From Thermodesulfobacteriota bacterium (lineage in GTDB: Bacteria; Desulfobacterota_D; UBA1144; Nemesobacterales; Mycalebacteriaceae): a stretch of DNA of 64,000 bases. The stretch spans positions 886,570 through 950,569 of the forward strand of contig OZ242184.1 in NCBI GenBank assembly GCA_965205855.1. Direction: 5' to 3'. The stretch's first letter is position 1; each line of letters begins with the position of its first letter. The translations under genes were made by a program, and so were the position numbers. Below, piece after piece: positions 2,705-59,415 of the stretch. Below the pieces are notes generated by a model. The model was not told the DNA's origin, did not search any database, and saw only the letters and a list, made by a program, of their open reading frames with translations.

Positions 2705-3414
2705 CAAACCGCAATATAAAAAGCTGCGAGGCTTTGGTTATAAAAAAAACTCCGCTCGGCGAATCCGATATCGCGGTTGTGTTTTTCACAAAAGAGTTCG
2801 GCAAGCTCAGAGCGACGGCAAAGAATGCGGTTTCGAGCAGAAAAAGATTCGGCGGTCGGCTTGAACTTTTCACCCGTCTGAAAATTGAACTGAGAAAGAC
2901 CCTCGCGGGTACGACAACGCTGGAAAGCGCGGAATTGATAAAGAGTTTTGAAGATGTGGTAAAAGACATGAGAATCTTTCTCAAGGCAAACTGCATTGTT
3001 GAGTTTATAGACGCGGCACTACCGGAAAACGAAGAGCCGTGTGAAATAATGTTCACTGAAGCGCTGAAAGCCTTTTCATCAATGGAAAAAGGAGACGGGA
3101 TTGCGGCGATGATAAAATTCCAAATGGTCTCTCTTGAAACCCTCGGATACGGAGCGGATTTGTCGCGTTGTGGCGAGTGCGAAAGAAATGATTTCGCACG
3201 TGGGTCGCTGGTTTTTTCGACCGGTCTTTTCCTGTGCGACGAGTGCGGACGCAAAGAGGTAGCAAAGCCCGCGAAGAAAATCATGCGCGCAAACGCCCTC
3301 GTAGAAGACGAAGACGCGTTTGAAACCATCAACTGCCTGAACGCTTTCTTTCAATATCAGACGGGAAAAATATTGAAATCCGCGAAAGTTCTGGAGAGTA
3401 TGTTGCTGATATGA
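2701..3414 (+). CDS. recO: DNA repair protein RecO.
   Basis: It has an N-terminal OB-fold-like region and a C-terminal Cys4 zinc motif (CGECE...CDECG), at 237 aa, with a 4-nt overlap with mgtE. Confidence 0.7.
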   Translation: MTNRNIKSCEALVIKKTPLGESDIAVVFFTKEFGKLRATAKNAVSSRKRFGGRLELFTRLKIELRKTLAGTTTLESAELIKSFEDVVKDMRIFLKANCIVEFIDAALPENEEPCEIMFTEALKAFSSMEKGDGIAAMIKFQMVSLETLGYGADLSRCGECERNDFARGSLVFSTGLFLCDECGRKEVAKPAKKIMRANALVEDEDAFETINCLNAFFQYQTGKILKSAKVLESMLLI

Positions 3415-38456: not shown

Positions 38457-38532
38457 TGGCTCCGGCGGAGGGATTCGAACCCCCGACCTAGTGGTTAACA
38501 GCCACCCGCTCTGCCAGCTGAGCTACACCGGA
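38457..38532 (-). tRNA. tRNA-Asn (GTT), with encoded CCA.
   Basis: A hand-folded cloverleaf has acceptor TCCGGTG/CGCCGGA, anticodon loop CTGTTAA and a GGTTCGAATCC T-arm. Confidence 0.75.
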
Positions 38533-42446: not shown

Positions 42447-42764
42447 CTACCCTTTTATACCGGTTATGCGAACCGATGTGTATCTCTGCCGGTGTCCGGC
42501 TTTAAGTCTGTATTTTTTGCGTCTTTTGAATTTAAAAACGGTAATTTTAGGTCCTTTCTTCTGAGAGACGATTTCGCCTTTAACTTCCGCTCCGTCAACA
42601 ACGGGAGTACCCACGCGCGCCTCACCCTCTCCGTCCGAAACCATAAGCACATCGGGAAATCCGATCGTGTCTCCGGGGCTACCCTCGATTTTTTCTATGT
42701 CAAGAACATCTCCGGATTTGACCAAGTACTGTCTGTTTCCTGTTCTTATTACTGCCTGCTGCAT
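42447..42764 (-). CDS. rplU: 50S ribosomal protein L21.
   Basis: It starts MQQAVIRTGNRQY and is 105 aa, lying 12 nt upstream of rpmA. Confidence 0.9.
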   Translation of the reverse strand: MQQAVIRTGNRQYLVKSGDVLDIEKIEGSPGDTIGFPDVLMVSDGEGEARVGTPVVDGAEVKGEIVSQKKGPKITVFKFKRRKKYRLKAGHRQRYTSVRITGIKG

Positions 42765-42788: not shown

Positions 42789-43547
42789 TCAATTATGCCA
42801 CAAAAAGGGATGGAGTGTCAAACTATACGGCGACCGCCTGATAGTCGGGGAGTTCACCCATTGTTTTCCCTCAAGAGCGCGTCCCGTCTTCTTTTTGTTC
42901 ACACCGCCCCATTGTTTGAAGAAAAACGGAACCCCGCTTTCAACGCAGTTGTCCCTGATTTCCGTAACCCATTCCTCTTTCATCGGTCTTGCGCCGGGGC
43001 CGGACTCTCCACCGACAATGACCCAGTCTATGCCTGACAAATTGAGGTTTGGAAACGGGGCAAGCAACGGTTCAAGAGAAAGAAACTTCACGCAAGCATC
43101 GGTCTGTTTTAAAACTTCTGTACGGGAAAGATATTTCTCGGACTCTACGCTTGTTCCCATCCAGATGTTGGAAGTCCAGTGCAGGTGTTTGTTCGCCTTC
43201 ACAACCCTTTCCGGTCTTTTTGTGAGAACCTGAAAAGTGTGTTGAGATGCTTCGTTCATAACTTCAAAAACGGACATAATGAATTTTGCGGGAACATCCT
43301 TGTGGAACAAATCGCTCATTGAATTGACAAAAACTATTTTCGGTTTTTTCCATTTAAGCGGGTCTTTCAAAGTGTGTTCATGAGTGGTGAGTTTGAAACC
43401 GTTTCTGTATTTCTCCATCCCTTGAGCGTGAAGCCGCTTTGCCATCCGCTCGGCGTAGCAGTATTTGCAACCGTGGCTGATTTTTGAACAACCGGTAATG
43501 GGGTTCCATGTTGTGTGAGTCCATCCTATTTTGGAGGGTTGGGTCAT
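42789..43547 (-). CDS. Phage Gp37/Gp68 (DUF5131)-like three-Cys protein.
   Basis: Its N-terminus is [26 protein letters not shown] (C-x6-C-x2-C). The start ATG overlaps the res stop (TAATG). Confidence 0.55.
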
Positions 43548-46090
43548 TACTGTTTGTTGATAACACCGTTTATATCGTCCCGCCAGCTGTCTTCAAACAT
43601 CATCCTGAAAGTAGCGGGCGTCTTATTGATGGCCATTTCGCCTCTGTCAAGGGCGATCCTGTATGTTTTTTCAAGCGTGTCGAGCAATTTTTTCTTGTAA
43701 CTCGTATCTTCGCTGCCTTTCAGGTGGATGCCCTTTGTTTCCAGAATTAGCAGTTTTCCGTTATCTTTTCGGCAGGCCACAAAATCGGGATACACGCGCT
43801 GGCGTCGCCAGCCTTGCAGATAGTACGCTTGTCTTGCAGCTATTCTGTGCCACCAGTAGATGGCGTTGCTCTTATCCAGATAAAGCGCAAAATCCCGCTC
43901 CAGACCGTTAAAACTACTTTCATAAACAGGTTCAAAAAGGTTTTGCTGTATAGGTCTGCCATGTTCGCTCTGTAATGATCTTTCTTGACTGGAAACAAAA
44001 ACCTCGAACGACTTGCTCAATTCGTAGTCCAGTCGCTGGTCGGTCTCAAGGTGAAACCGAATCACATTCCGCCCAACCTTTTCCCGAAACACCGCTTCGG
44101 CCTCGTCGTCTATGGCCTTGTTCACGCGGCGGCTCAATTCTTCGGAAAGGTAAATTCGGTTATTCAACAATTTGCTTTCATCGTGTTTCCTGTTTTTATG
44201 TGTTTGAATAAACCCCTCCGCCATGCGCGCCGCCTGCCACGGATTGGGCACCTTGTCCACAAGCCGCCGAACAAAATAATCCACGCTCAGCCGCTTTTCG
44301 CTGTCAGGGATTTGTTCCGAAGCCTTAACCTGCCCTTGAATGTCCACCGTGGTTTTGATCTCCTGAGTGATGTCTCTATCATCCAGATTCACCGCTGCGC
44401 CCGCGTCAATGGTGTCCCAATCAATCGCGCTTAATATATCGCGGTCGTAATCAATGGGGCGCCAGGTGCGCCCCGCTTTGTGTAACACCTGCGGGAGAAA
44501 AATTTTCAATGGCCGGTATTTACCACGACGTTTGACGGTGGTCGGTTTCGGTGCATCGCCCTCGCCATGCCCGTGAACAAAATCGCCAAGCCCGGTCAGC
44601 CCTTCATTCTCCAGGCCGGCCTTCACGCCTTTGATCGCCTTGCCTACGACCTGATTATAGCAATAGATATAACACTGGTTCAGCGCATCGCCTTGTGCGA
44701 TTCTGCGTGCATGGGGTTGCCGCATCACCCGACCGACCATTTGCGTGATGGCGGTGGTTGCGGTGGTGTTATCCAGCAAGGCAAGCAGATATGCAAACGA
44801 GCAATCCCAGCCTTCTTTCAGCGCGTCTTTGGTGATAATCCAGCGCACCTCGCTTGTCTCGCTCAACAAATCCTCACCCGCAAGTTCCTTGCGTTCCGAT
44901 GATTGAATCCTGATGTGATTCTCCGGCACAGCAAGATTTTGTATCAGGTATTCGCGCGCATCCTCCGAATGAATTTTTCCTTGCCCTCTTTGTTTTGCGC
45001 CCGTTCTTTCCACCCTGACCAAAGCGATGGGTCGGATATGGCGGTTTTCCTGTTCCTGTAATTTTTGCGCCGCACTTTCAAGCTCATCCAGTTTTTCCTG
45101 TGTTTTGGCAAGCGTGTGTTCCCAGTCGGAATTGCTGAAACTGTGAATCTCTATCGGCAGTTTGATCATCTCCTCGTCCTGGAGGTCGCGGCCCGATGTG
45201 TTGACCAGGATATTGCTGATGCCGATTTTCGGCGTGGCGGACAGTTCAAGCACAAAACGGGGGTTGAGCCGGTTGACGGATTTGACAAACTCCTGGTTGT
45301 TTTGATTATTCGGTCCATATGCTTTATGCGCTTCGTCCAAAATCACCGTGGGACGAATCAGTTTCAGCACATTGATCAGGCTTTGCTTAACCCAGTCGCC
45401 GGGTGCATTTTTCTCCAGGTCGGGATGGTGTTCCGAAAGCGTTGCATTGGCCGCCGCGTCATCCTGCTCGGGAAAAAACGACATATACCCGCTGCTGTCG
45501 CGGAATATTTTGAGAAACTCCCTGTTCTTTTGCCGGTTGGCGGAGGGTAGCATCAGCAGCATAATGCAAAGATAGTTTTCGGTATCCTGTCGGGTAAAGC
45601 GGTCGGTTTTTTGCAACAATTTGACCCTGCCGCCAGACATATGTTCGAGCATCTGCCGGTAGGTATGTTCGCGGGTGTGGAACGCCTGGCGGGTCTGCTC
45701 GTAGATCGCCCGGGTCGGCACAATCCACAACACAAAGCCGGTATCCCGCTTGATCCGCTCAAGCGTGGCCACGCCCAACAGCGTCTTGCCGCCGCCGGTC
45801 GGCACCTTCAGGCAAACATGCGGGATGGGTTCGCCGGATGCCGCAGTGCGGGAAATGTAGCCGGGAACTGCCATGTCACCGTCTTGGGAAATGCCGGGGA
45901 GGATATTTTGATCTTTCAGCGCCTTCCAAGCTAAGAGGGGATAGTTTTGCAGTTCTTCAGGAATATCAATCCCCGACTCTTCAAGAGCTTTGCCCGCCTT
46001 TTCACTAGTCAGCCGCGCTTCCTTGAGCGCGTCCAGCCAGCGGTCTAACTGTTCAAGAGCTTGTTGCTGATAGTTTTTCAGGGAGAGCAT
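43547..46090 (-). CDS. res: Type III restriction enzyme Res subunit (SF2 helicase plus C-terminal nuclease).
   Basis: It has Walker A (VPTGGGKTL), DEAH (ILDEAHKA), motif VI (QMVGRVMRQ) and a C-terminal PD-(D/E)xK-like ILETKG. The start is set at MLSLKNY (46090), 1 nt after the upstream ORF stop. Confidence 0.75.
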
Positions 46091-46091
46091 A

Positions 46092-46649
46092 TCACGGATT
46101 TTTTGAGTCAGTACTGTCTGAATTATTTGGCAAATTGATGATTTCAACAGGCACATTCCTTTTACCAACTGCAAGACCGACAGCGTAGTTACGGATAATA
46201 GTTTGATCCATTTCCATATCCGCATAGCCTTGTGGATAGTACGAACCCCTTAGAATTTCCATCTGTTCTACCTTAAAATCTAGCACCTTGGCCATTGAGC
46301 TAAGCATCTCCGTGAGCAATTCCATTTGCTCCTTGCCGAGTCGTTCATAGTGCGAACGAGAATCATTTTCTTCGTTAGGCCTCTTAGCATGCGTTTCACC
46401 ATAATGCTTGCGGAGTGCTGCCCATTTTTCTATAACTTCTTTATGCTTAACAAATTCTATCTCAACCAGATTAATGGCTCCGACATAATCAGGTGATAAA
46501 CGCGCATTTCGTGTACGCATTAACGTCTTGAATATATCCATTTTTCGCGCCTTTTGTTCGCGCCATCTGTCAAGAAGACCGTTAACCCAGACAGCTGCGC
46601 AAGGACCGATTAAGATGGCTGCAATGGTGATGATAGAATATGAATTCAT
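46092..46649 (-). CDS. Membrane-anchored hypothetical protein embedded between mod and res.
   Basis: It has one N-terminal TM helix (IITIAAILIGPCAAVWVNGLL) followed by a charged helical domain. It lies 2 nt after the mod stop and 1 nt before the res start, and is visibly AT-richer than its flanks. Confidence 0.6.
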   Translation of the reverse strand: MNSYSIITIAAILIGPCAAVWVNGLLDRWREQKARKMDIFKTLMRTRNARLSPDYVGAINLVEIEFVKHKEVIEKWAALRKHYGETHAKRPNEENDSRSHYERLGKEQMELLTEMLSSMAKVLDFKVEQMEILRGSYYPQGYADMEMDQTIIRNYAVGLAVGKRNVPVEIINLPNNSDSTDSKNP

Positions 46650-46651
46650 GT

Positions 46652-48208
46652 TTATCTTATACCCTCATATGGTAATTGGGCAAAAGTTATCCCCATCTCG
46701 GTTAATGCTTTTTGTCCCATGAATTTGTGAGTGGCGAACACCACCGCGGTTTTCTTTTTTGCCTTGGCCTGTTTGGCGATGCGTTCGGCGCGGGTGCTGT
46801 TCAAAGCGGAATCCGCACTGCGCAGAAAATCAAGGTTCGGCTCGTAGATCAGGTAAAACATTTTGTCACCTGCTTCATAAAATAAACCGTCTTTGCCACG
46901 CCTTGTTTTCGGGTTGAGTTTATGCGGCGATTGTCCGCTTGCGGTATAGATCAGATGGCGGGCAAAGGTTTCATAGCCCGGCAGGTTCCTGCCGGTGAGC
47001 ATTTTTTCAATGCTGATTTCATCGCCCAGTGTGCAATAGGCAAAACTGCCGCCCAGTCCGTTTTTTAGGTTCTCATCCTTTGCTTTTGGTATGCCCTTTA
47101 TCACACGGCGAACGCGCTCGGCGGTGATTTTGTCGGCGTAGTCTTCGCATTCCACCAAGATAAATTTGCGGTTGCCGCCGTCTTCCTTGTTCAGCGCAAG
47201 CACGGCGTGGGCAGTGGTGCCGGAACCGGCGAAGGAGTCGAGGATAATGGCGTTTTTTGTCGTTGCCAGTTGTAAAATCTTTTTCACAAGGGAAATTGGT
47301 TTGGGGTTTTGGAACTGATTAGAACCAAACACCGTCCTCAACTCGATTGTGCCGTTGGTTGTTGTACCTACATCATCCCACCAAGTGCTAGGCGTTAACC
47401 CCCTTCGGCGTGCCTCTGACAAAAAACGTTTGCGCTGAGGTCTGGAACTATTTCTCTTTCCGAATACGATTCTATTGTCTGCAAGAAGCTCCTCAAATTT
47501 GTTCAAATCGTTTTTCCAGCAATTACCTTCAGTGGGGTAAAATATTTCTTTTGTTTTAGGGTTTCTTATCGGATACATCTGATTAGGTCGAACCCCACCA
47601 GCCTCAAATGGATCCGCCTTCCATGGGCCTCTCGGATCATTATCAGGATTTTTGAATCCTTCTAAAATGGCAGGAAGTTTGAAATCTTTTCTAATGGTTT
47701 TTAATACATTCAGTTGTTTAGCATAAGCTATATTATGAGTGTGTGATATTGATACTAATGCAGGATTTGTAATTGATTTTGTGCTATGCCACACAAAATC
47801 TGCAACAAAATTCTCCTCCCCAAAAATCTCATCCATGACCATCCGCAGGCGGTGCTGTTCATTGTCGTCGATGGAAATAAAAATTACGCCATCTTCGGCC
47901 AGCAATTCTCTTAACAACTGCAATCTTGGCCACATCATGCACAGCCATTTGTCGTGCCGCTCCAGGTCTTCGCCATCCACCGGACTTTTGCCTTTCAGCC
48001 ACGCCTTCATCATCGGGCTGTTGACATTGTCGTTATAGACCCATTTCTCATTGCCGGTGTTGTAGGGCGGGTCGATGTAAATGCAGTTGACGCGGCTGGC
48101 ATAGCGCGGCAGCAACGCCTTGAGCGCGTGCAGATTGTCGCCGTGGATAATCAGATTGTCATCAAGGGAAGGGTTACCCCCCCATTTTTCGCTGAAAGAG
48201 ATTTTTTA
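46652..48208 (-). pseudogene. mod: Type III R-M Mod subunit (beta-class N6-adenine methyltransferase) with its 5' end disrupted at a G7 tract; candidate phase-variable gene in the OFF state.
   Basis: DPPY (motif IV) precedes ILDSFAGSGTTAHAV (motif I). Mod-like sequence (DDNLIIHGDNLHALKA) continues upstream of the annotated TTG (48115) to a TAA at about 48208, with no ATG. An upstream ATG ORF (48291..48151) is in another frame and crosses the G7 tract at about 48177-48183. Confidence 0.7.
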
Positions 48209-48284
48209 GTGTCTATCTCAAGTGTCCTGGACGGAACAGTCAGGTGGTGCGCATAAATGAGTTGCTTCCCTTTGAAATCAATTG

Positions 48285-48448
48285 TCGGCATTGAAAACCC
48301 CGTAAATCAGTTTGATATTGGCTTTGAAGATACCCGATTTACTCCCCCAACCTAAACCCCTCAACCTCCCGATGCACCGCCCCTTCCCGTCTCAATTCAC
48401 TCTCCATCAAACAAACTCTTTCAGAAGCAAAACCAAGTTCAAACTGCG
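48285..48448. repeat. Direct repeat copy A of the thpR 3'-terminal sequence (about 164 nt).
   Basis: It is near-identical to copy B and about 90% identical to copy C over tcagtttgatattggctttgaa...caaactgcg. It abuts the mod upstream ATG on one side and the IS fragment on the other. Confidence 0.8.
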
Positions 48449-48768
48449 CCCGCGGTGACATGGAGAACCGGATCAAGGATCAGCAGTTGGATTTGTTTGC
48501 GGATCGCACCTCTTGTCACCGCTGGTGGCCCAACCAGTGCCGGCAGTTGCTGTCAGGGTTGGCTTACACGTTGATTGAGGGATTGCGGCGCCTTGCACTA
48601 CAGGGCACCGAACTGGCCAAAGCCAGTCCTCACAGGATCAGGCTGACACTGCTTAAAATCGGTGCCGTGATCATCCGCAACACGCGCCGCATCCGCCTAC
48701 TGATGAGCAGTGCTTATCCCCATCAGGCGTTGTTCCGCACGGCAGCCTATCGGCTCAACTCCCCATAA
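48449..48768 (+). mobile_element. C-terminal fragment (about 100 aa) of an IS1380-like DDE transposase; IS remnant.
   Basis: ENRIKDQQLDLFADRTSCHRWWPNQ ... LAYTL ... RLTLLKIGA matches the conserved C-terminus of IS1380-family transposases. There is no N-terminal catalytic part, and it starts exactly where repeat A ends. Confidence 0.55.
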
Positions 48769-48959: not shown

Positions 48960-50099
48960 TTATTTTCGGATGAGAAACAGAAATTCTTTATTCGGATCGC
49001 TGGATTCCCGCAACCACTCATTTGTCCATTTCATGGCGGCCATCACATTTTTTTTATACTCAATTTTTGCGCTATCCACAATTTCTCCGTTACGCGTTAT
49101 CACCTCGTTTAATTCCTCCGCGGTTGCTCGTCCACCGGAACTGTAAGAGAGCAAGATCCATCGGCAAGGAGTTTCCTTCAGCAAACGCTCTATGGCTTCC
49201 ACCACAACCAATCGTCCTGATTTGCTTCTACGAAATTCCTCGAACACTGAAGTCGCCACTTTATCGGATGTGTCTTTTCTGCGGAGGGACTTGCCAAATA
49301 GCACGGGATGATCATTTTTACATATGGTCGTCCACAAATGATAATATGAAGCGTACCGAACCCTTGAAGGTGGCATTTTTTCATTGTTTGACCCATACGG
49401 AGGATCAAAATAAGCAAGATCGGCGTCCGCTTCGGGAAGTACCTTAAAAACATCACCACACAGCACCGTGTTTTCGATTTCATTTTTCCACAACCGTGGC
49501 ACTTTCAATTGTAAATTTTTGAATGAACGCGGCGACCAATCTTTTAAATAAGAAACAAAATGACCAAGAGTACTGTCTATCTCATTCAACCCTAAAATCA
49601 GGCTTGTCAATGCCACACTTTTGGAAACGTCATCCAGCATCAAGGCATCGATCTCTCTCCTGATTGCATCAAGTTTTCTTGTATTTTTTTTCTGCCAAGG
49701 CTTTTTGGTTCCATCCTTCTGAATAGCATTATGGCAAGTTCCAGAGCGAACATCACCACCGTAATTCTCAGTAAACCATCCGTCTTCCGGAGGAAGCGAA
49801 TTTAAATGATCAATAAGAGGTTGGTATATTTTCGGGTTTTTTAAGTTTTTCAAATAGCACGTGGCAAAAATTCTTGACCATTCGGAAATATCATTTGATA
49901 CCACGCGATATCCTGCTTGTGCAAAAGATTGACTTACTCTGGTGGAGCCTGAAAAACCGTCAAAAATGCTTTTTGCTCCGGTCTGTTTTGACAGATTAAA
50001 AATATGTGGAAGCAGTTTCAGTTTTGAGCCTGCGTAATTGATGCCTTCGGTTTTTGGAACATCAATCCAATCACGAAAAATTTGAACTTGCCCTTGCAT
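48960..50099 (-). CDS. D12-class (Dam-family) N6-adenine DNA methyltransferase.
   Basis: It has the N-terminal INYAGSKLKLLP motif (compare Dam WAGGK..LL) and FDPPYGS (motif IV), at 379 aa. Confidence 0.7.
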   Translation of the reverse strand: MQGQVQIFRDWIDVPKTEGINYAGSKLKLLPHIFNLSKQTGAKSIFDGFSGSTRVSQSFAQAGYRVVSNDISEWSRIFATCYLKNLKNPKIYQPLIDHLNSLPPEDGWFTENYGGDVRSGTCHNAIQKDGTKKPWQKKNTRKLDAIRREIDALMLDDVSKSVALTSLILGLNEIDSTLGHFVSYLKDWSPRSFKNLQLKVPRLWKNEIENTVLCGDVFKVLPEADADLAYFDPPYGSNNEKMPPSRVRYASYYHLWTTICKNDHPVLFGKSLRRKDTSDKVATSVFEEFRRSKSGRLVVVEAIERLLKETPCRWILLSYSSGGRATAEELNEVITRNGEIVDSAKIEYKKNVMAAMKWTNEWLRESSDPNKEFLFLIRK

Positions 50100-50776
50100 T
50101 ATGTAACTTTAAAGCGGGAAGCCTGCTTGAGTCTAACAATATCATCTTTCACTTTTGCAAGAGCCTCATTCTGGCCGAAATCAGAAGAAACAAGCGCGTG
50201 AGAAAATAGTTGGACCAAGATAGGATTGTGAGAATAATCAACCCATCCATTGGTTATGCTATCAAAATAGTTTAAACCACTTTTTGTATGAGTCCAAAGC
50301 CCTCGCTGGAGGGCATTGGCGGTTGCGCTTCCATAACGCACCTCGCAAATATAAGAATCGCTTGCATCGTAGAAACGATATACTGGGTGCTTTCTACCTT
50401 TCTTTTTTGTTTCTTTTACTATTTTCACCGTTTCAGTTTCAGCGCGGTGGTAATCGAAGACAAGAATATTACACTGTCGATTTTTTTCGTCATAAATTAA
50501 TGGCAAAACATTTACATTGTAAAAATCCGAGAAAGCGGGGTCGGCAAGCACTCGTTGTACATTTTTCTTGCCCACTATTTCATCCCCCTCTTGTGCCAAT
50601 CTCGGAAACATTTTGAAATTCTTGTCGGTTGAAAGTTGAAGGGGACCATCACCATACGCTTTGATGCTAACAGGAAATTCAGCTTCGGTTACTTCATTTA
50701 TTATTTTGATGTCTTCTTCCCGAGATTTGGCTCTGTATAAATCTTTGCCAACATGGATCGAGCGAAAATCATACAT
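50099..50776 (-). CDS. Candidate Type II restriction endonuclease (C-terminal part?), paired with the Dam-like methyltransferase.
   Basis: Its stop overlaps the methyltransferase start. The 225-aa product has no recognised motif, and a 69-aa ORF abuts it 1 nt upstream in another frame. Confidence 0.35.
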   Translation of the reverse strand: MYDFRSIHVGKDLYRAKSREEDIKIINEVTEAEFPVSIKAYGDGPLQLSTDKNFKMFPRLAQEGDEIVGKKNVQRVLADPAFSDFYNVNVLPLIYDEKNRQCNILVFDYHRAETETVKIVKETKKKGRKHPVYRFYDASDSYICEVRYGSATANALQRGLWTHTKSGLNYFDSITNGWVDYSHNPILVQLFSHALVSSDFGQNEALAKVKDDIVRLKQASRFKVT

Positions 50777-50777
50777 A

Positions 50778-50987
50778 CTACTGGTTGATAAATTCGGCTA
50801 TGGCGATTTCTGCCAAATCTCCATGTGTTTTATTTCCAATGAGGCGCATGGTGAAAATGTTGCTCAATGTCAAGATTATTAAATCCGGGCGTTTACTCGC
50901 AAGAAGCTTCAATCTCGAGATGAAATCTTTATATGGATCATTTTTCATGTTTTTCGTTTGATGCCTCTGTTTTGGTATTTTTATCAA
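50778..50987 (-). CDS. Small ORF, possibly the frameshifted N-terminal part of the downstream restriction gene.
   Basis: The 69-aa product ends 1 nt before the ATG of the 225-aa ORF. Confidence 0.3.
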   Translation of the reverse strand: MIKIPKQRHQTKNMKNDPYKDFISRLKLLASKRPDLIILTLSNIFTMRLIGNKTHGDLAEIAIAEFINQ

Positions 50988-51105: not shown

Positions 51106-51335
51106 TCGGCATTGAAAACCCCGTAAATCAGTTTGATATTGGCTTTGAAGATACCCGATTTACTCCCCCAACCTAAACCCCTCAACCTCCCGATGCACCG
51201 CCCCTTCCCGTCTCAATTCACTCTCCATCAAACAAACTCTTTCAGAAGCAAAACCAAGTTCAAACTGCGGCAATTCGGGTAGCTTCATCCTTTTTTTTAT
51301 CCACCCTATCGTAACGTGCGACATAAAATCCCGTT
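51106..51335. repeat. Direct repeat copy B of the thpR 3'-terminal sequence (about 230 nt).
   Basis: It is identical to copy A over about 164 nt and continues to match copy C through ...ataaaatcccgtt. Confidence 0.8.
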
Positions 51336-51461: not shown

Positions 51462-51872
51462 TTAGTGCTCGCCCTCTTGATTAATTTGTTTCCACAAACT
51501 GCCGATAGCAAGTAGTGCTGGAATAATAAGTAGCACCACTACAATTGGCACACTTGATTTAATTACCTCTACATTTAATGCATATACGGTAATAACATCG
51601 GATATGTCCGTCAATAATCTGACAATTAATATCGCTAAAAGTGCTTTATGAGACTTAAGGAATAAAGCAACTATTATCCCTATAACTACCATTACATTTC
51701 TTGTAATGTAAAGTTGTGTAACATAATTCAATTCGGAAACCTCTGGTATGAAACCACTTGGGTTCATGGCCGTACCAGCTGAGAAGAAAAGCACTAAAGA
51801 TATTTGTATTAGAACAATGACCCATACCCAAATAGGTAAGAATCCATTGGTTTGACCATTTTTGTAATTCAT
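51462..51872 (-). CDS. Hypothetical 4-TM membrane protein (AT-rich cargo gene).
   Basis: It has four hydrophobic segments and low GC relative to the flanks, and sits between repeat copies C and B. Confidence 0.5.
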   Translation of the reverse strand: MNYKNGQTNGFLPIWVWVIVLIQISLVLFFSAGTAMNPSGFIPEVSELNYVTQLYITRNVMVVIGIIVALFLKSHKALLAILIVRLLTDISDVITVYALNVEVIKSSVPIVVVLLIIPALLAIGSLWKQINQEGEH

Positions 51873-52050: not shown

Positions 52051-52258
52051 TCAGTTTGATATTGGCTTTGAAAATACCCGATTTACTCCCCCAACCTAAA
52101 ACCCTCAACCTCCCGATGCACCGCCCCTTCTCGTCTCAATTCACTCTCCATCAAACAAACCCTGTCAGAAACAAACTCAAGTTTAAACTGCGGCAATTCG
52201 GGCAGTTTTATCCTTTTTCTTATCCGCCCTATCGTAATGTGTGGTATAAAATCCCGTT
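52051..52258. repeat. Repeat copy C: the resident 3' end of thpR plus about 30 nt downstream, the source sequence of copies A and B.
   Basis: It overlaps thpR codons for ...HITIGRIRKRIKLPELPQFKLEFVSDRVCLMESELRREGAVHREVEGFRLGE*. Confidence 0.8.
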
Positions 52259-52664
52259 TCTCCGGCTCAAAACCGATTGTCTCAAGTTTTGAGTCAATCT
52301 CGTCCTTGAGACTGAAAAACGCGTCCCCGGATTCCGCAATCACCGCAAGCGTCTGCGTATAACGGCGGAGTATAAGCGCCTCAACCCCGTCCGTTGTGAT
52401 GTCGAGCGGCACAAACCGCTTGCAACAACTTTCAATAACCCCGCACAGTTCGGGAATCAATTCGCGGCGCGTCTCTCCGAGAAACCTTAAAGTAATATGG
52501 AATTTTTCAGACAGCTCCCAACGCACATGGCGGAGCGAGCGTATTGCGGCGGAACGGGATTTTATCACCCTTTTTGCTTTTTCGGGAACTTCAAGAGAAA
52601 TAAAAAGCCGGACGGTAGCGCTGTCAACTCTCAAGCTCAACATTCCAGTATGAGGCATCAACAA
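52083..52664 (-). CDS. thpR: RNA 2',3'-cyclic phosphodiesterase (2H family, ThpR/LigT).
   Basis: It has two HxT/S motifs (HITLRFLGE and HITIGRI), at 193 aa. Confidence 0.8.
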   Translation of the reverse strand: MLMPHTGMLSLRVDSATVRLFISLEVPEKAKRVIKSRSAAIRSLRHVRWELSEKFHITLRFLGETRRELIPELCGVIESCCKRFVPLDITTDGVEALILRRYTQTLAVIAESGDAFFSLKDEIDSKLETIGFEPEKRDFIPHITIGRIRKRIKLPELPQFKLEFVSDRVCLMESELRREGAVHREVEGFRLGE

Positions 52665-56992: not shown

Positions 56993-58078
56993 GTGAGCAG
57001 TATGAGCATCAAAGAAATATGTGGCAAGGTAATGGACTGCGAAAGACTGCGCGGCGATGACGGACTTGAACTCCTGCGCGGTGCGACCCTGACGCAACTC
57101 GGTGGCCTTGCGTCTTTTTGCAGACAGAGGTGCAACCCCGGCAAAACCGTAACCTTCATCTGCGACACAAACCCGAACTATACAAATGTGTGCGACACAG
57201 AATGCCTTTTCTGCGCCTTCTGGAGACCCGCGGATGCGTCGGACGCCTACACTCTTTCAGTGGACAGGCTCATTGAGATGATGAAAACATCTTATCACAA
57301 CGGAGCCACAACGGTTTTGCTTCAGGGCGGTCACAATCCCGATATCGGAATTGAGTATTACGAGAAAATTGTGAGGCGCGCGAGAGAGGAAATTCCCGGT
57401 CTTCATCTTCACGCCTTTTCCGCGCCGGAAATAGCGGCAATCGCGAAATACGAGGGCATCAATACGCGGGATGTGCTGTGGAGACTCTGGAATGCCGGAC
57501 TCAGAACAATCCCCGGCGGTGGCGCGGAGATACTTTCCAACAGAGTGAGAAAAAAAATCAGCCCGCTCAAGATAGATGCGGACAAGTGGATTGGAATTAC
57601 AAAAGAGGCACATGAAACCGGATTCAAAACCACCGCGACAATGATGTTCGGTCATTTAGAGCGGGACGAAGACATTGTGGAGCATCTCACGAGGGTGCGC
57701 GATTTGCAGGATGAAACGGGCGGTTTTCTCGCTTTTATACCCTGGATATTCAAGCCTTCCAACACCTTCCTTGAGCGCAAAATTTCCGCCGAAATAGGCG
57801 GGGAACGCTATTTACGTGTGCTTGCGGTGTGCCGAATCTTCCTTGACAACTTCAGATTTATTCAGGGCTCGTGGTTCACTCAGGGGTTTAAAATCGGGTC
57901 TGCGTCAATGAATTTCGGCGCGGACGACCTTGGGGGAACATTGTATGAGGAAAACGTGCTCAGATGCGCGGAGAACAGAATAAAGGCGAGTGCCGGAGAG
58001 ATTTCCGGAATGATAGAGCGCGCGGGCTTCAAGCCGGCGCGGAGAAACACTTTTTATGAAATCATACCCAAACCCTGA
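56993..58078 (+). CDS. Radical SAM enzyme of the MqnC/MqnE/CofH family (futalosine-pathway menaquinone biosynthesis).
   Basis: It has the CDTNPNYTNVCDTECLFCAF cluster motif and a MqnC-like length of 361 aa. Confidence 0.65.
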   Translation: MSSMSIKEICGKVMDCERLRGDDGLELLRGATLTQLGGLASFCRQRCNPGKTVTFICDTNPNYTNVCDTECLFCAFWRPADASDAYTLSVDRLIEMMKTSYHNGATTVLLQGGHNPDIGIEYYEKIVRRAREEIPGLHLHAFSAPEIAAIAKYEGINTRDVLWRLWNAGLRTIPGGGAEILSNRVRKKISPLKIDADKWIGITKEAHETGFKTTATMMFGHLERDEDIVEHLTRVRDLQDETGGFLAFIPWIFKPSNTFLERKISAEIGGERYLRVLAVCRIFLDNFRFIQGSWFTQGFKIGSASMNFGADDLGGTLYEENVLRCAENRIKASAGEISGMIERAGFKPARRNTFYEIIPKP

Positions 58079-58821
58079 TGGCTGAGCGTATACAGAAACT
58101 GCTCGCGGGCGCCGGAGCGGGCTCGCGGAGACAGGCGGAAAAGTTGATAAAATCCGGCGCGGTTTTTGTCAACGGAAAGATTTGCAAACTCGGAGACAAA
58201 GCGGAGCCGCATGACGCCATTACAATAGACGGAAGGGAAATTGATTGTAAAACAGACCCGTCCGAAAAACTCGTAATCGCATACAACAAGCCCGCCGGAA
58301 AAATCGTGAGCAGAAGCGACCCTCAAAACCGCCCCGTTGTTTTTGATGATTTGCCCCCGTTAAAGAAAGCCCGCTGGGTTTGTGCGGGGCGGCTGGACGT
58401 GAATACATCGGGGTTGCTGCTCTTCTGTTCGGACGGACTGCTTGCGCACAGGCTTGCTCATCCCTCAAGCGGAATTGAGCGCGAATATATGGCGCGTGTG
58501 CGCGGAAACACGGGTCCGGAAACGATTAATAAACTGCTCGCGGGCGTTGTTCTTGACGGCAAAAAGGGGCAGTTTGAAAAAATTACAGCAGTTGCCTCAA
58601 AGAACAAAAGCAACAAATGGTTCAAGATAATTGTACAAGAGGGAAGAAACAGGTTTGTCAGAAGAATGTGGGAAAGTTGCGGGTGTTCGGTCAGTCGCTT
58701 GATAAGGGTCAGGTTCGCAACGGTGAGGCTTCCGAAAAAATTGCCCACGGGAGCGTCGGTATTTCTTGATGGGAAGGAAATCCGGAAGATTTATAAAGCC
58801 ACGGGGGTTAATACGGGTTAG
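58078..58821 (+). CDS. rRNA pseudouridine synthase, RsuA/RluB family.
   Basis: It has an N-terminal S4 domain and a catalytic GRLDVNTSGLLL motif. Confidence 0.8.
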   Translation: MAERIQKLLAGAGAGSRRQAEKLIKSGAVFVNGKICKLGDKAEPHDAITIDGREIDCKTDPSEKLVIAYNKPAGKIVSRSDPQNRPVVFDDLPPLKKARWVCAGRLDVNTSGLLLFCSDGLLAHRLAHPSSGIEREYMARVRGNTGPETINKLLAGVVLDGKKGQFEKITAVASKNKSNKWFKIIVQEGRNRFVRRMWESCGCSVSRLIRVRFATVRLPKKLPTGASVFLDGKEIRKIYKATGVNTG

Positions 58822-58848
58822 GCAATTTGCGTGCCGTCGCGGGTGGAA

Positions 58849-59415
58849 TCACTTCACCCTTTCAACATAACTTCCGTCCCTTGTATCAACCCTTATGATA
58901 TCCCCAGGGTTGACAAAAAGCGGGACGTTAACCTTCGCTCCGGTCTCAAGAGTCGCGGGCTTTGTCGCGGACGCGGCGGTGTCTCCCTTCACTCCCGGTT
59001 CCGCCTCGGTAACTTTCAATTCCACAACCGCCTTGGGAAACTCAACTCCACGCGGCTCCCCGTTGATGAAGTTGACCTGGACCTCCTGGTGCTCGCTGAT
59101 AAAATCCGCCATGCTCCCAACCTGAGCGGCCGAAAGCTCCCATTGGTCAAACTTCTCGCTGTCCATAAAATGGTAGGAAGAACCGTCCGAATACAGAAAC
59201 TGCATTGCCGTTTTTTTTATGTCAGGAGTATCAAATTTGTCTCCCGAACGGAATTTTTTTTCCTGTACCGCTCCCGTAACTATGTTGCGCACCTTTACCG
59301 TTACGATGGGACTACGTTGAGCCATCTTTGAGTGCTGATACTCAATGATCTCCCAAATCCCGTCATCGGTCTGTATTTTCATTCCTCTGTGAAAATCGTT
59401 TGTTTCAACAACCAT
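58849..59415 (-). CDS. efp: Elongation factor P.
   Basis: It has three OB/KOW-like domains and the conserved G (KGDTAASATKPA) region. I trimmed the start to MVVETNDF at 59415. Confidence 0.85.
   Translation of the reverse strand: MVVETNDFHRGMKIQTDDGIWEIIEYQHSKMAQRSPIVTVKVRNIVTGAVQEKKFRSGDKFDTPDIKKTAMQFLYSDGSSYHFMDSEKFDQWELSAAQVGSMADFISEHQEVQVNFINGEPRGVEFPKAVVELKVTEAEPGVKGDTAASATKPATLETGAKVNVPLFVNPGDIIRVDTRDGSYVERVK

Follow-up and report, generated by a model that had tools for sequence, protein, structure and literature searches.

Restriction-modification (R-M) systems of Type III are described as two contiguous genes, mod and res, and their Res subunit is active only in complex with Mod. 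Such systems cleave in an ATP-dependent reaction that requires Mod and unmethylated sites, and they hemimethylate an asymmetric site. Among the known systems closest to the locus described here are the phasevarions (e.g., Helicobacter pylori modH, with its G[n] tract). A survey of these systems (PMC5909438) called mod phase-variable if a mononucleotide repeat of at least 9 lay within the ORF, regarded G7-G8 tracts as capable of phase variation too, and let more than 90% identity define a single mod group. A further point of comparison is the class of unrelated genes nested in defence systems, such as prrC in the Type Ic system EcoprrI and the rlo genes of Type I loci; the 'guilt-by-embedding' survey of Payne et al. 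2024 (bioRxiv 10.1101/2024.01.29.577857) looked at Hma, BREX, DISARM and Type I systems and did not include Type III. The same approach yielded the published candidate pair TcmP+DUF5131 (PADLOC PDC-M41/M30), PDC-M30 and PDC-M41 stemming from cassettes that lie inside BREX, DISARM and Type I systems.

How does a run of four coupled genes that includes mod and res compare with these systems? We regard it as probable that the block is a composite, in which a laterally moving, switchable Type III cassette with an embedded DUF6680 gene has joined a resident DUF5131 gene.

Layout of the locus

The features below lie in the window, the whole 64-kb stretch of DNA that was analysed.

42447..42764, minus strand: rplU (ribosomal protein L21, from ORF translation), the housekeeping boundary of the island
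42789..43547, minus strand: DUF5131 (Gp37/Gp68) radical-SAM-fold protein, 252 aa (Pfam DUF5131, 3.8e-98)
42792..42821, minus strand: promoter-like site, TTGACA, 18 nt, CATAAT, with TG (best match in the scan, 11/12 positions)
43547..46090, minus strand: res, SF2 helicase (PTGGGKT, DEAH) with C-terminal PD...ExK nuclease (Pfam ResIII, 2.7e-14; PADLOC REase_III)
46092..46649, minus strand: DUF6680 gene, 185 aa (PF20385, 5.9e-47)
46652..48176, minus strand: mod main frame (Pfam N6_N4_Mtase, 5.1e-32; PADLOC MTase_III, 9e-146)
48177..48183, minus strand: G7 homopolymer in mod, frameshift site and candidate slippage tract (direct read)
48184..48291, minus strand: 5' segment of mod, codons 1-36, in a frame unlike the rest of mod (translation, homology to intact Mods)
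48307..48514, no strand assigned: first copy of a direct repeat of 208 nt that duplicates the thpR 3' end, immediately upstream of mod

An earlier note on this DNA had reported four tightly joined minus-strand genes and had named the DUF5131 and Type III Mod and Res families; the ORF list together with a direct read of the letters bears out the first statement, and the domain-library matches listed above bear out the second. On the minus strand, the mod TAA is followed by 2 nt and the DUF6680 ATG, the DUF6680 TGA is followed by 1 nt and the res ATG, and the res stop overlaps the DUF5131 ATG in the sequence TAATG. A scan found no minus-strand terminator-like site at any gene boundary. Given this and the TAATG coupling, co-expression of DUF5131 with res is possible, and DUF5131 may consequently cooperate in function. 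The promoter-like site is 27 nt upstream of rplU, where the tail of the DUF5131 ORF is not conserved, and Ribosomal_L21p is found at the matching position in a related genome (L005). Further copies of the 208-nt repeat are present at 51128-51335 and 52051-52258. The neighbouring Type II nuclease is split, with an IS remnant beside it, and its frame break is not at a homopolymer.

The Type III assignment is carried by both subunits. Res comprises 847 aa from a conserved ATG and matches PADLOC REase_III (6e-213) over residues 3-841; alignments to every relative begin at residue 1, which supports its start at 46090. Its translation combines SF2 helicase motifs with a PD-(D/E)xK site (PDF...ILETKG), and it is 91% identical to the Res of the closest relative, L013, with a dN/dS of 0.21. 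In Mod, the order DPPY, target recognition domain (TRD), FAGSGTT (IYIDPPYNTG and DSFAGSGTT in the translation) is that of the beta-class N6-adenine methyltransferases. Mod would accordingly modify adenine and also provide DNA recognition, and res would encode the helicase-nuclease of the cassette. The two genes are not contiguous: the DUF6680 gene intervenes, as it does in L012, L013, L015 and L019.

The poly-G tract in mod

The earlier note read mod as one ORF from 48291, and so missed both the frameshift and the poly-G tract. The frame of the ATG at 48291 translates to MPTIDFKGKQLIYAHHLTVPSRTLEIDTKKSLSAKN and then meets a stop, its ending reading 'MTI*'; only a +1 shift after codon 36, in the G7 tract (48177-48183), leads into the methylase frame, so that the window has no intact mod reading frame. 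The main-frame ORF itself spans 46652-48115 (minus strand), the first in-frame start past a stop being the TTG at 48115. The 5' segment is nevertheless homologous to the N-termini of the intact Mods in L012, L019, L015 and L092, and the addition of one G (G8) yields a Mod of 546 aa that can be aligned with intact relatives over its whole length.

At the homologous site, L013 carries a G24 tract, a length that is itself uncertain, and its mod is likewise out of frame; in other relatives the site reads GG or GGCGG and mod is intact. Comparison between loci thus gives tract lengths of 7, 24 and 2, with both long tracts out of frame. Because L013 has G24 where the window has G7, and neither is in frame, the comparison suggests slippage-driven ON/OFF switching. 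We infer that the poly-G tract, at codon 37 of mod, is prone to slippage and that its length would fix the reading frame, so that the entire enzyme would be switchable ON or OFF; as assembled (G7), mod would be OFF. The same gene differs from its L013 counterpart in a second respect. Its 5' end is 87% and its 3' end 92% identical to L013 mod, whereas the central 47258-47806 finds no match, which points to a swap of the TRD. The Mod C-terminus has a dN/dS of 0.14.

Pseudogenisation of mod or a homopolymer assembly error may account for the frameshift instead. If the frameshift were an assembly error, mod would truly be intact (G8) and the locus a constitutive Type III operon with an embedded gene. 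Long-read assemblies are known to err in the length of homopolymers, the L013 length is uncertain, and a single inserted G restores the full-length Mod; we consider this reading unlikely, however, because the tract is out of frame in two independent assemblies and the break in the nearby Type II nuclease lies outside homopolymers, so that the stretch gives no sign of systematic homopolymer error. Pseudogenisation would make the locus an eroding relic, in which mod has been inactivated by a frameshift that is now fixed, the intact downstream ORFs have not yet decayed, and the cassette no longer restricts or methylates. The frameshift itself, the split Type II nuclease with its adjoining IS remnant, the L015 copy, which shows that cassette decay happens, and a DUF6680 dN/dS of 0.70 relative to L013 all agree with erosion. 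Yet the mod break sits exactly in the homopolymer that is G24 in the closest relative, indicating a hypermutable tract and not a random lesion; moreover, res, DUF6680 and DUF5131 are all intact, and Res and the Mod C-terminus have the dN/dS values given above. On this evidence we judge a relic quite unlikely.

DUF6680, DUF5131 and the origin of the block

The 185-aa protein is a member of the DUF6680 family, scoring 159.9 bits against a cut-off of 23.2 over residues 1-177 of the protein (PF20385). At E<=1e-3, the family numbers 1847 cluster representatives. The membrane anchor that the earlier note had proposed is backed by sequence and by an AF2 model (pLDDT 92), in which a transmembrane helix at the N-terminus leads into a four-helix bundle in the cytoplasm. 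The model returned no informative fold match and displays no signature of catalysis or DNA binding; PADLOC lacks a model for DUF6680, and no mention of the family was found in the literature searched. Relative to L012, its dN/dS is 0.26-0.31.

The order mod-DUF6680-res recurs in four other loci (L012, L013, L015 and L019, of which L015 is a decayed copy), all from sponge-associated Nitrospirales and Arenicellales MAGs; the hosts of the cassette span two phyla, and none of the four loci has DUF5131. Across the cassette loci, neighbouring genes stay 1-4 nt apart or overlap at ATGA. In a tree of 81 members, the embedded DUF6680 proteins of the five loci form one clade, which has kept its position between the two subunit genes even as identity dropped to 49-54% in Mod and 37-38% in Res. 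By these comparisons, mod-DUF6680-res is a conserved Type III cassette that appears to move laterally among sponge-associated bacteria. The mod/res junction of L092 holds a ParE toxin-antitoxin pair, a HEPN-like gene and a TPR/DUF2971 gene, and that of L004 holds an M78 peptidase and DUF4411; the junction thus acts as a cargo slot.

What might DUF6680 do there? We propose that it is a co-inherited, translationally coupled small protein that one N-terminal helix would anchor in the inner membrane, with its four-helix bundle facing the cytoplasm. From its position between mod and res, and by the logic of prrC and rlo in Type I loci and of 'guilt-by-embedding', we infer an embedded defence accessory at the cytoplasmic membrane face, which might serve as an effector of the back-up or exclusion type, or as a tether. 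The family as a whole need not be a defence family, since 76 of 80 DUF6680 loci lack R-M linkage. Many of these lie among housekeeping genes; the commonest partner is a GrlR-like protein of ~111 aa, and others lie by cysS, leuA or RNR genes.

DUF5131 has a different history. The window protein matches PADLOC PDC-M41B (1.7e-117) and PDC-M30B (7.8e-115); more than 8000 homologues were found, of which the best 120 listed share 64-84% identity with it. On its PADLOC matches, it is the B half of the candidate defence pair TcmP+DUF5131. Cys20, Cys27 and Cys30 are invariant in 37 homologues, the fold is a partial radical-SAM TIM barrel, and RadicalSAM.org lists DUF5131 as a radical-SAM subgroup (Megacluster-5-2) in the same megacluster as spore photoproduct lyase (SPL, 5-3). 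The structural model is poor around the Cys loop (pLDDT <50, residues 21-33). A comparison of DUF5131 with solved structures gave no sequence-level match. The gene is under strong purifying selection (dN/dS). DUF5131 is thus a predicted [4Fe-4S]/SAM radical enzyme, and because its fold most resembles that of spore photoproduct lyase, it probably acts on nucleic acid. Among ~10 contexts sampled from the more than 8000 homologues, TcmP lies directly upstream of DUF5131 in L004, L006-L011, L094 and L095, as does a PDC-M30A-sized gene in L096. A tblastn search found no TcmP (TIGR04474) in the whole window, where the gene directly upstream is res, and the res-DUF5131 adjacency was seen in this window only.

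Homology breakpoints separate the two parts. The window is 92% identical to L013 over 47257-43582, a match that ends 35 nt before the res stop, and homology to the DUF5131 loci L005 and L004 begins exactly at the DUF5131 ATG (43547). The match to the L005 DUF5131 runs as far as 42836, and the match to the L005 rplU flank resumes at 42823. In L005, DUF5131 lies upstream of rplU beside MT-A70, N6_N4_Mtase and HNH genes, not beside a Type III system; since DUF5131 occupies this site next to a different R-M system, the TAATG fusion is a local junction. We propose that DUF5131 was resident upstream of rplU first, and that the cassette then joined it such that the res stop came to overlap the DUF5131 ATG.

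These results bear on the alternatives that make less, or more, of the two additional genes. DUF6680 might be a passenger, with a role at the membrane that has nothing to do with restriction, at a junction that merely tolerates insertions. The 76 family loci without Mod and Res, the prevalence of the GrlR-like partner, the different cargo at other mod/res junctions and the absence of a catalytic or DNA-binding signature from the fold would suit a passenger; we nonetheless hold it to be somewhat unlikely, given that the embedded copies are one clade fixed between diverging mod and res genes, that junction geometry is conserved, and that a distant DUF6680 relative occupies the gpA-gpQ slot of a P2-like phage. 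At the other extreme, the four genes could be one system, as the earlier note had it, with the radical-SAM protein modifying or processing DNA and using the Type III Mod in place of TcmP. TAATG coupling and the lack of terminator-like sites fit this idea, as do the strong purifying selection on DUF5131, the methyltransferase-like motifs of TcmP (DAFAGTG, LDPF; a weak RlmJ match, E 0.04), and the fact that TcmP-less DUF5131 genes have DNA methylase genes as neighbours in L005 and in the phages Jablanski, prophiGD53-3 and RcapNL. We find it highly improbable: DUF5131 is absent from all five related Type III cassettes, the breakpoints fall exactly at the res/DUF5131 junction, the same gene stands upstream of rplU in L005 next to another R-M system, and phages Sbash, Bipper and PhiCh1 have DUF5131 with no methylase annotated within 2.5 kb. 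A bolder version, also very unlikely, would have DUF6680 as a membrane defence component under the control of the Type III enzyme, after the PrrC/EcoprrI model, with DUF5131 using Mod and all four genes cooperating. Were it true, Mod-Res would silence or position DUF6680 at the inner membrane face, and a phage blocking restriction would release or activate it; the GrlR-like protein would be the controller for most of the DUF6680 family; and DUF5131 would be a DNA-acting radical-SAM enzyme with varied methyltransferase partners, here Mod instead of TcmP.

The locus is a three-gene mobile R-M cassette beside an unrelated radical-SAM gene, not a new four-gene system. Both additional genes are, as the earlier note supposed, real members of families with no assigned function, and DUF6680 does recur between mod and res; the abortive-infection, regulatory or hypermodification-accessory roles that the note suggested would be candidate functions. 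DUF5131 does not belong to the cassette, and its usual partner is TcmP. Because the cassette landed beside a gene unrelated to it, the locus adds one candidate to the known class of genes nested in bacterial defence systems.

Comparison with known systems

Like the phasevarions, the window cassette has mod upstream of res, a Mod of the beta-class m6A type with DPPY before and FxGxG after the TRD, a helicase Res with a PD-ExK nuclease, and, inside the 5' part of mod, a mononucleotide G tract that would set the frame. It likewise shares their allele pattern, with conserved mod ends and a central TRD swapped between relatives, although its 87% lies slightly under the survey's >90%. Unlike the phasevarions, it has a third gene between mod and res, and its G7 tract falls short of the survey threshold of G9, which the G24 of its relative passes. 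Furthermore, phasevarions are found in host-adapted pathogens, whereas the hosts here are sponge-associated MAGs and the switching is predicted from sequence.

Similarly, DUF6680 resembles prrC, the rlo genes and the 'guilt-by-embedding' candidates in being an unrelated, same-strand gene nested between defence subunit genes, recurrently (five loci, one clade) and co-inherited with its host system. It differs in being a small membrane-anchored helical bundle, where PrrC is an ATPase-nuclease, and in having no PADLOC model. DUF5131, for its part, resembles spore photoproduct lyase and the other radical-SAM enzymes, a superfamily defined by [4Fe-4S]-dependent reductive SAM cleavage, in that three cysteines close to its N-terminus are invariant, spaced CX6CX2C where the canonical motif is CX3CX2C. 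Finally, as in the TcmP+DUF5131 cassettes (PDC-M41/PDC-M30), the window DUF5131 sits in a defence island beside R-M genes; in contrast to them, it has no A component and is fused through TAATG to a Type III res.

Composite origin of the locus

Do the four tightly coupled genes constitute a single restriction-modification (R-M) system? The four open reading frames lie consecutively on the minus strand:

42789-43547, minus strand: DUF5131 gene, 252 aa
43547-46090, minus strand: res, 847 aa from the ATG common to all relatives
46092-46649, minus strand: DUF6680 gene, 185 aa
46652-48115, minus strand: mod, main-frame open reading frame

The earlier note had proposed one four-gene Type III operon on the strength of its junctions, and direct reading bore out all three: the mod TAA stop is separated from the DUF6680 ATG by 2 nt, the DUF6680 TGA stop is separated from the res ATG by 1 nt, and the res stop and DUF5131 start overlap as TAATG. 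A longer res reading frame from 46225 was dropped because the alignments of all relatives begin at the ATG at 46090. Between 38 and 53.5 kb, the Rfam and tRNA searches returned nothing beyond a tRNA-Asn gene at 38457-38532.

The DNA homology between the window and its closest relative, L013 (92%), spans 47257 to 43582, leaving the last 35 nt ahead of the res stop unmatched. With L004 and L005, the nearest DUF5131 loci, homology sets in exactly at the DUF5131 ATG, 43547. In L005 the same DUF5131 gene (84% protein identity) likewise lies upstream of the ribosomal protein gene rplU, with MT-A70, N6_N4_Mtase, and HNH genes beside it and AAA_21 and RloB genes after it, and in the rplU flank the match to the window resumes at 42823. 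The L005 context and the breakpoints therefore indicate that DUF5131 is resident at this site and that differing R-M cassettes have been placed beside it. DUF5131 is absent from all four sister cassettes (L012, L013, L015, and L019) and from another Type III relative (L092 1841-4998; Res 72% and Mod 65% identical). The locus thus combines two units, a mobile mod-DUF6680-res cassette and an orphan DUF5131 gene already resident at the site, and the four-gene system is not supported, since DUF5131 is missing from the sister cassettes and homology breaks around the res/DUF5131 junction. Two adjoining modules that are unrelated can resemble one system through their tight junctions alone. The final ~15 codons of the window DUF5131 reading frame are not conserved and overlap the region's best promoter-like site, 27 nt upstream of rplU.

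The resident protein matches DUF5131 (Gp37/Gp68) at 3.8e-98, and its residues C20, C27, and C30 are invariant among 37 homologues. RadicalSAM.org places DUF5131, as a radical-SAM subgroup, in one megacluster with spore photoproduct lyase (PMC9477430); a profile search against solved structures gave nothing meaningful. We infer that the DUF5131 protein is a radical-SAM enzyme in its own right, with nucleic acid as its substrate. The gene directly upstream encodes TcmP (TIGR04474), or a larger variant, in most of the other contexts covered (L004, L006-L011, L094, L095, and L096). This pair corresponds to the PADLOC candidates PDC-M41 and PDC-M30, which were drawn from cassettes nested inside BREX, DISARM, or Type I systems (bioRxiv 10.1101/2024.01.29.577857); no mention of PDC-M41 was found in the searched literature. 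TcmP genes (L011 7139-7996, L095 5144-5998, and others) encode conserved DAFAGTG and LDPF motifs, and TcmP weakly matches the rRNA m6A methyltransferase RlmJ (E 0.04). Its sequence suggests a methyltransferase-fold protein. No TcmP gene was found in the window. The dN/dS of DUF5131 is 0.08-0.11, indicating strong purifying selection, and the gene is solitary in many phages; an orphan DUF5131 can therefore be functional. A general DUF5131-methylase link in phages was rejected, as an annotated methylase lay nearby in only three of eight records sampled. The suggestion that undescribed partners accompany a Type III system holds for DUF6680 and fails for DUF5131, which usually pairs with TcmP and is not part of the cassette.

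Adjoining the cassette are the following elements:

48307-48514, 51128-51335, and 52051-52258: three copies of a 208-nt direct repeat
48460-48768, plus strand: DDE_Tnp_1_4 transposase fragment spanning 100 C-terminal aa, set between the Type II and the Type III system
48960-50099: D12-class methylase of a Type II system
50099-50987, minus strand: split Type II restriction nuclease, adjoining the D12-class methylase

The repeat corresponds to the 3' end of a thpR/LigT-like gene (52083-52664). Two of its copies, 1 and 2, additionally hold the first mod codons (ATGCCGA), and copy 1 is truncated by the transposase fragment. Between the copies lie a 136-aa membrane protein gene (51462-51872) and the Type II system with the IS remnant; the arrangement suggests that cassettes accumulated here one after another. 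The Type II nuclease consists of a 69-aa N-terminal reading frame and a 225-aa reading frame covering profile positions 58-278, the frame changing at 'cagTAGtATG', where there is no homopolymer. This nuclease is probably inactivated beside an intact methylase.

The poly-G tract in mod

Mod is a beta-class N6-adenine methyltransferase (Pfam N6_N4_Mtase; PADLOC MTase_III, 9e-146). Res matches PADLOC REase_III over its full length (6e-213) and contains Walker A, DEAH, and C-terminal PD...ExK motifs. The earlier note had taken mod to be continuous from 48291, and this reading was not upheld: the frame opened by the ATG at 48291 ends after 46 codons, and the methylase frame is accessible only via a +1 shift at a G7 run (48177-48183). 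With one G added, the product is a Mod of 546 aa, alignable with intact relatives over its entire length. At the same site L013 has G24 followed by (TAA)3, and its mod is likewise out of frame; it would read through with G23 or G26. Relatives with GG or GGCGG at the tract site have an intact mod. The tract is thus hypermutable-looking. The ends of the window and L013 mod genes are 87% and 92% identical, and the central 47258-47806 is without a match, a structure of conserved ends and differing centre also found among alleles of phase-variable mod genes (PMC5909438). The survey threshold for such genes was G9, and G7-G8 tracts were noted as able to switch (PMC5909438).

Because of the tract lengths and frames in the window and L013, the intact tract-free relatives, and the phase-variable allele structure, we favour slippage-driven ON/OFF switching of mod. 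A fixed pseudogene is also a possible reading of the window mod. It is possible, too, that the G7 frameshift is a homopolymer error in the assembly; the nearby frame split in the Type II nuclease, which is not at a homopolymer, speaks against such an error. In Type III systems Res depends on Mod, and so, if slippage does switch mod, restriction would switch too. With this tract, mod would be a new candidate phase-variable methylase gene from uncultured bacteria associated with sponges.

DUF6680 within and outside restriction-modification loci

The 185-aa protein belongs to Pfam DUF6680 (5.9e-47), a family with 1847 cluster representatives. It had no match in NCBIfam, PADLOC, or PHROGs, a profile search against solved structures gave nothing meaningful, and no mention of DUF6680 was found in the searched literature. 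An AlphaFold model (pLDDT 92) displays one N-terminal hydrophobic helix leading into a four-helix bundle; positive charges clustered just after the helix suggest, by the positive-inside rule, that the bundle is cytoplasmic, with this domain at residues ~30-165.

A 12-sequence alignment retrieved 80 DUF6680 loci (a 60-sequence alignment was too diverse for locus search). Four have the order Mod-DUF6680-Res: L012 and L019 from Nitrospirales, L013 from the Ca. Spongiihabitans MAG OZ242212.1, and L015, a decayed copy, from Ca. Poriferihabitaceae. The other 76 have neither Mod nor Res nearby. A neighbour-joining tree groups the five embedded proteins, that of the window among them, into one clade. 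The arrangement has been kept while identity dropped to 49-54% (Mod) and 37-38% (Res), and the junction geometry is conserved, with gaps of 1-4 nt or an ATGA overlap. The hosts belong to two phyla, implying lateral transfer of the three-gene unit. For DUF6680, dN/dS lies at 0.26-0.31 against L012 and at 0.70 against L013, where Res and the Mod C-terminus give 0.21 and 0.14. As an embedded partner, DUF6680 is conserved in one small clade only. A metagenome scan with Res as query found two loci only. A viral-contig scan with DUF6680 as query also found only two, from which it follows that this branch is not typically phage-borne.

Outside R-M loci, DUF6680 most often adjoins the gene for a translationally coupled protein of ~111 aa that has no Pfam match and weakly matches GrlR (PDB 2ovs and 4kt5, E about 0.02). 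This gene is present at L026 427-762 and at 35 further loci, among them L035 6654-6989 and L048 6615-6947; it usually precedes the DUF6680 gene immediately, the two overlapping as ATGA or separated by 0-3 nt. The two genes are an undescribed two-gene module. A toxin-antitoxin reading was rejected: over half of the loci in the family lack both this partner and an R-M system, which argues against a constitutive toxin. Further copies adjoin cysS, leuA, or ribonucleotide reductase genes, and distant relatives stand alone on Vibrio plasmids. Yersinia phage vB_YenM_31.17, which is P2-like, carries a distant DUF6680-like gene (L105 2890-3552; 26% identity, E 4e-5) between the replication gene gpA and the portal gene gpQ, a slot that in P2 relatives is home to tin/old-type anti-phage cargo. 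Window positions 57149-59412 align at about 70% DNA identity with the flanking DNA of L037, a locus in a Ca. Dadabacteria MAG where the two matching blocks are set apart by a 6.5-kb insert with a DUF6680 gene; this gives a weak hint at the taxon of the window.

The mod/res junction and genes embedded in defence operons

The mod/res junction is a cargo slot whose gene content differs between cassettes. In L092 it holds four genes (HEPN-like, antitoxin and ParE, and TPR/DUF2971); in this locus the res 5' end is moreover duplicated over 62 nt at 3150-3211, and a gene for an Mrr-type nuclease lies downstream. In the Type III locus L004 (8-7041) the slot is occupied by genes for an M78 (ImmA/IrrE-like) peptidase and a DUF4411 protein, and the locus adjoins a frameshifted TcmP gene and an intact DUF5131 gene.

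We propose that DUF6680 is an embedded defence accessory at the cytoplasmic membrane face, where its role might be that of effector, exclusion factor, or tether. If DUF6680 does defend, it would exemplify how a restriction enzyme of the cytoplasm can have a partner anchored in the membrane, and the family, with its roughly 1,800 sequence clusters, would have its first functional lead. Extra genes nested in defence operons are a known phenomenon, for example prrC in EcoprrI, and the 'guilt-by-embedding' survey of such genes did not cover Type III systems (bioRxiv 10.1101/2024.01.29.577857). DUF6680 resembles prrC and the surveyed genes in being nested in a defence operon; it differs in that its host is a Type III system, outside that survey, and a defensive role would extend 'guilt-by-embedding' to Type III systems.
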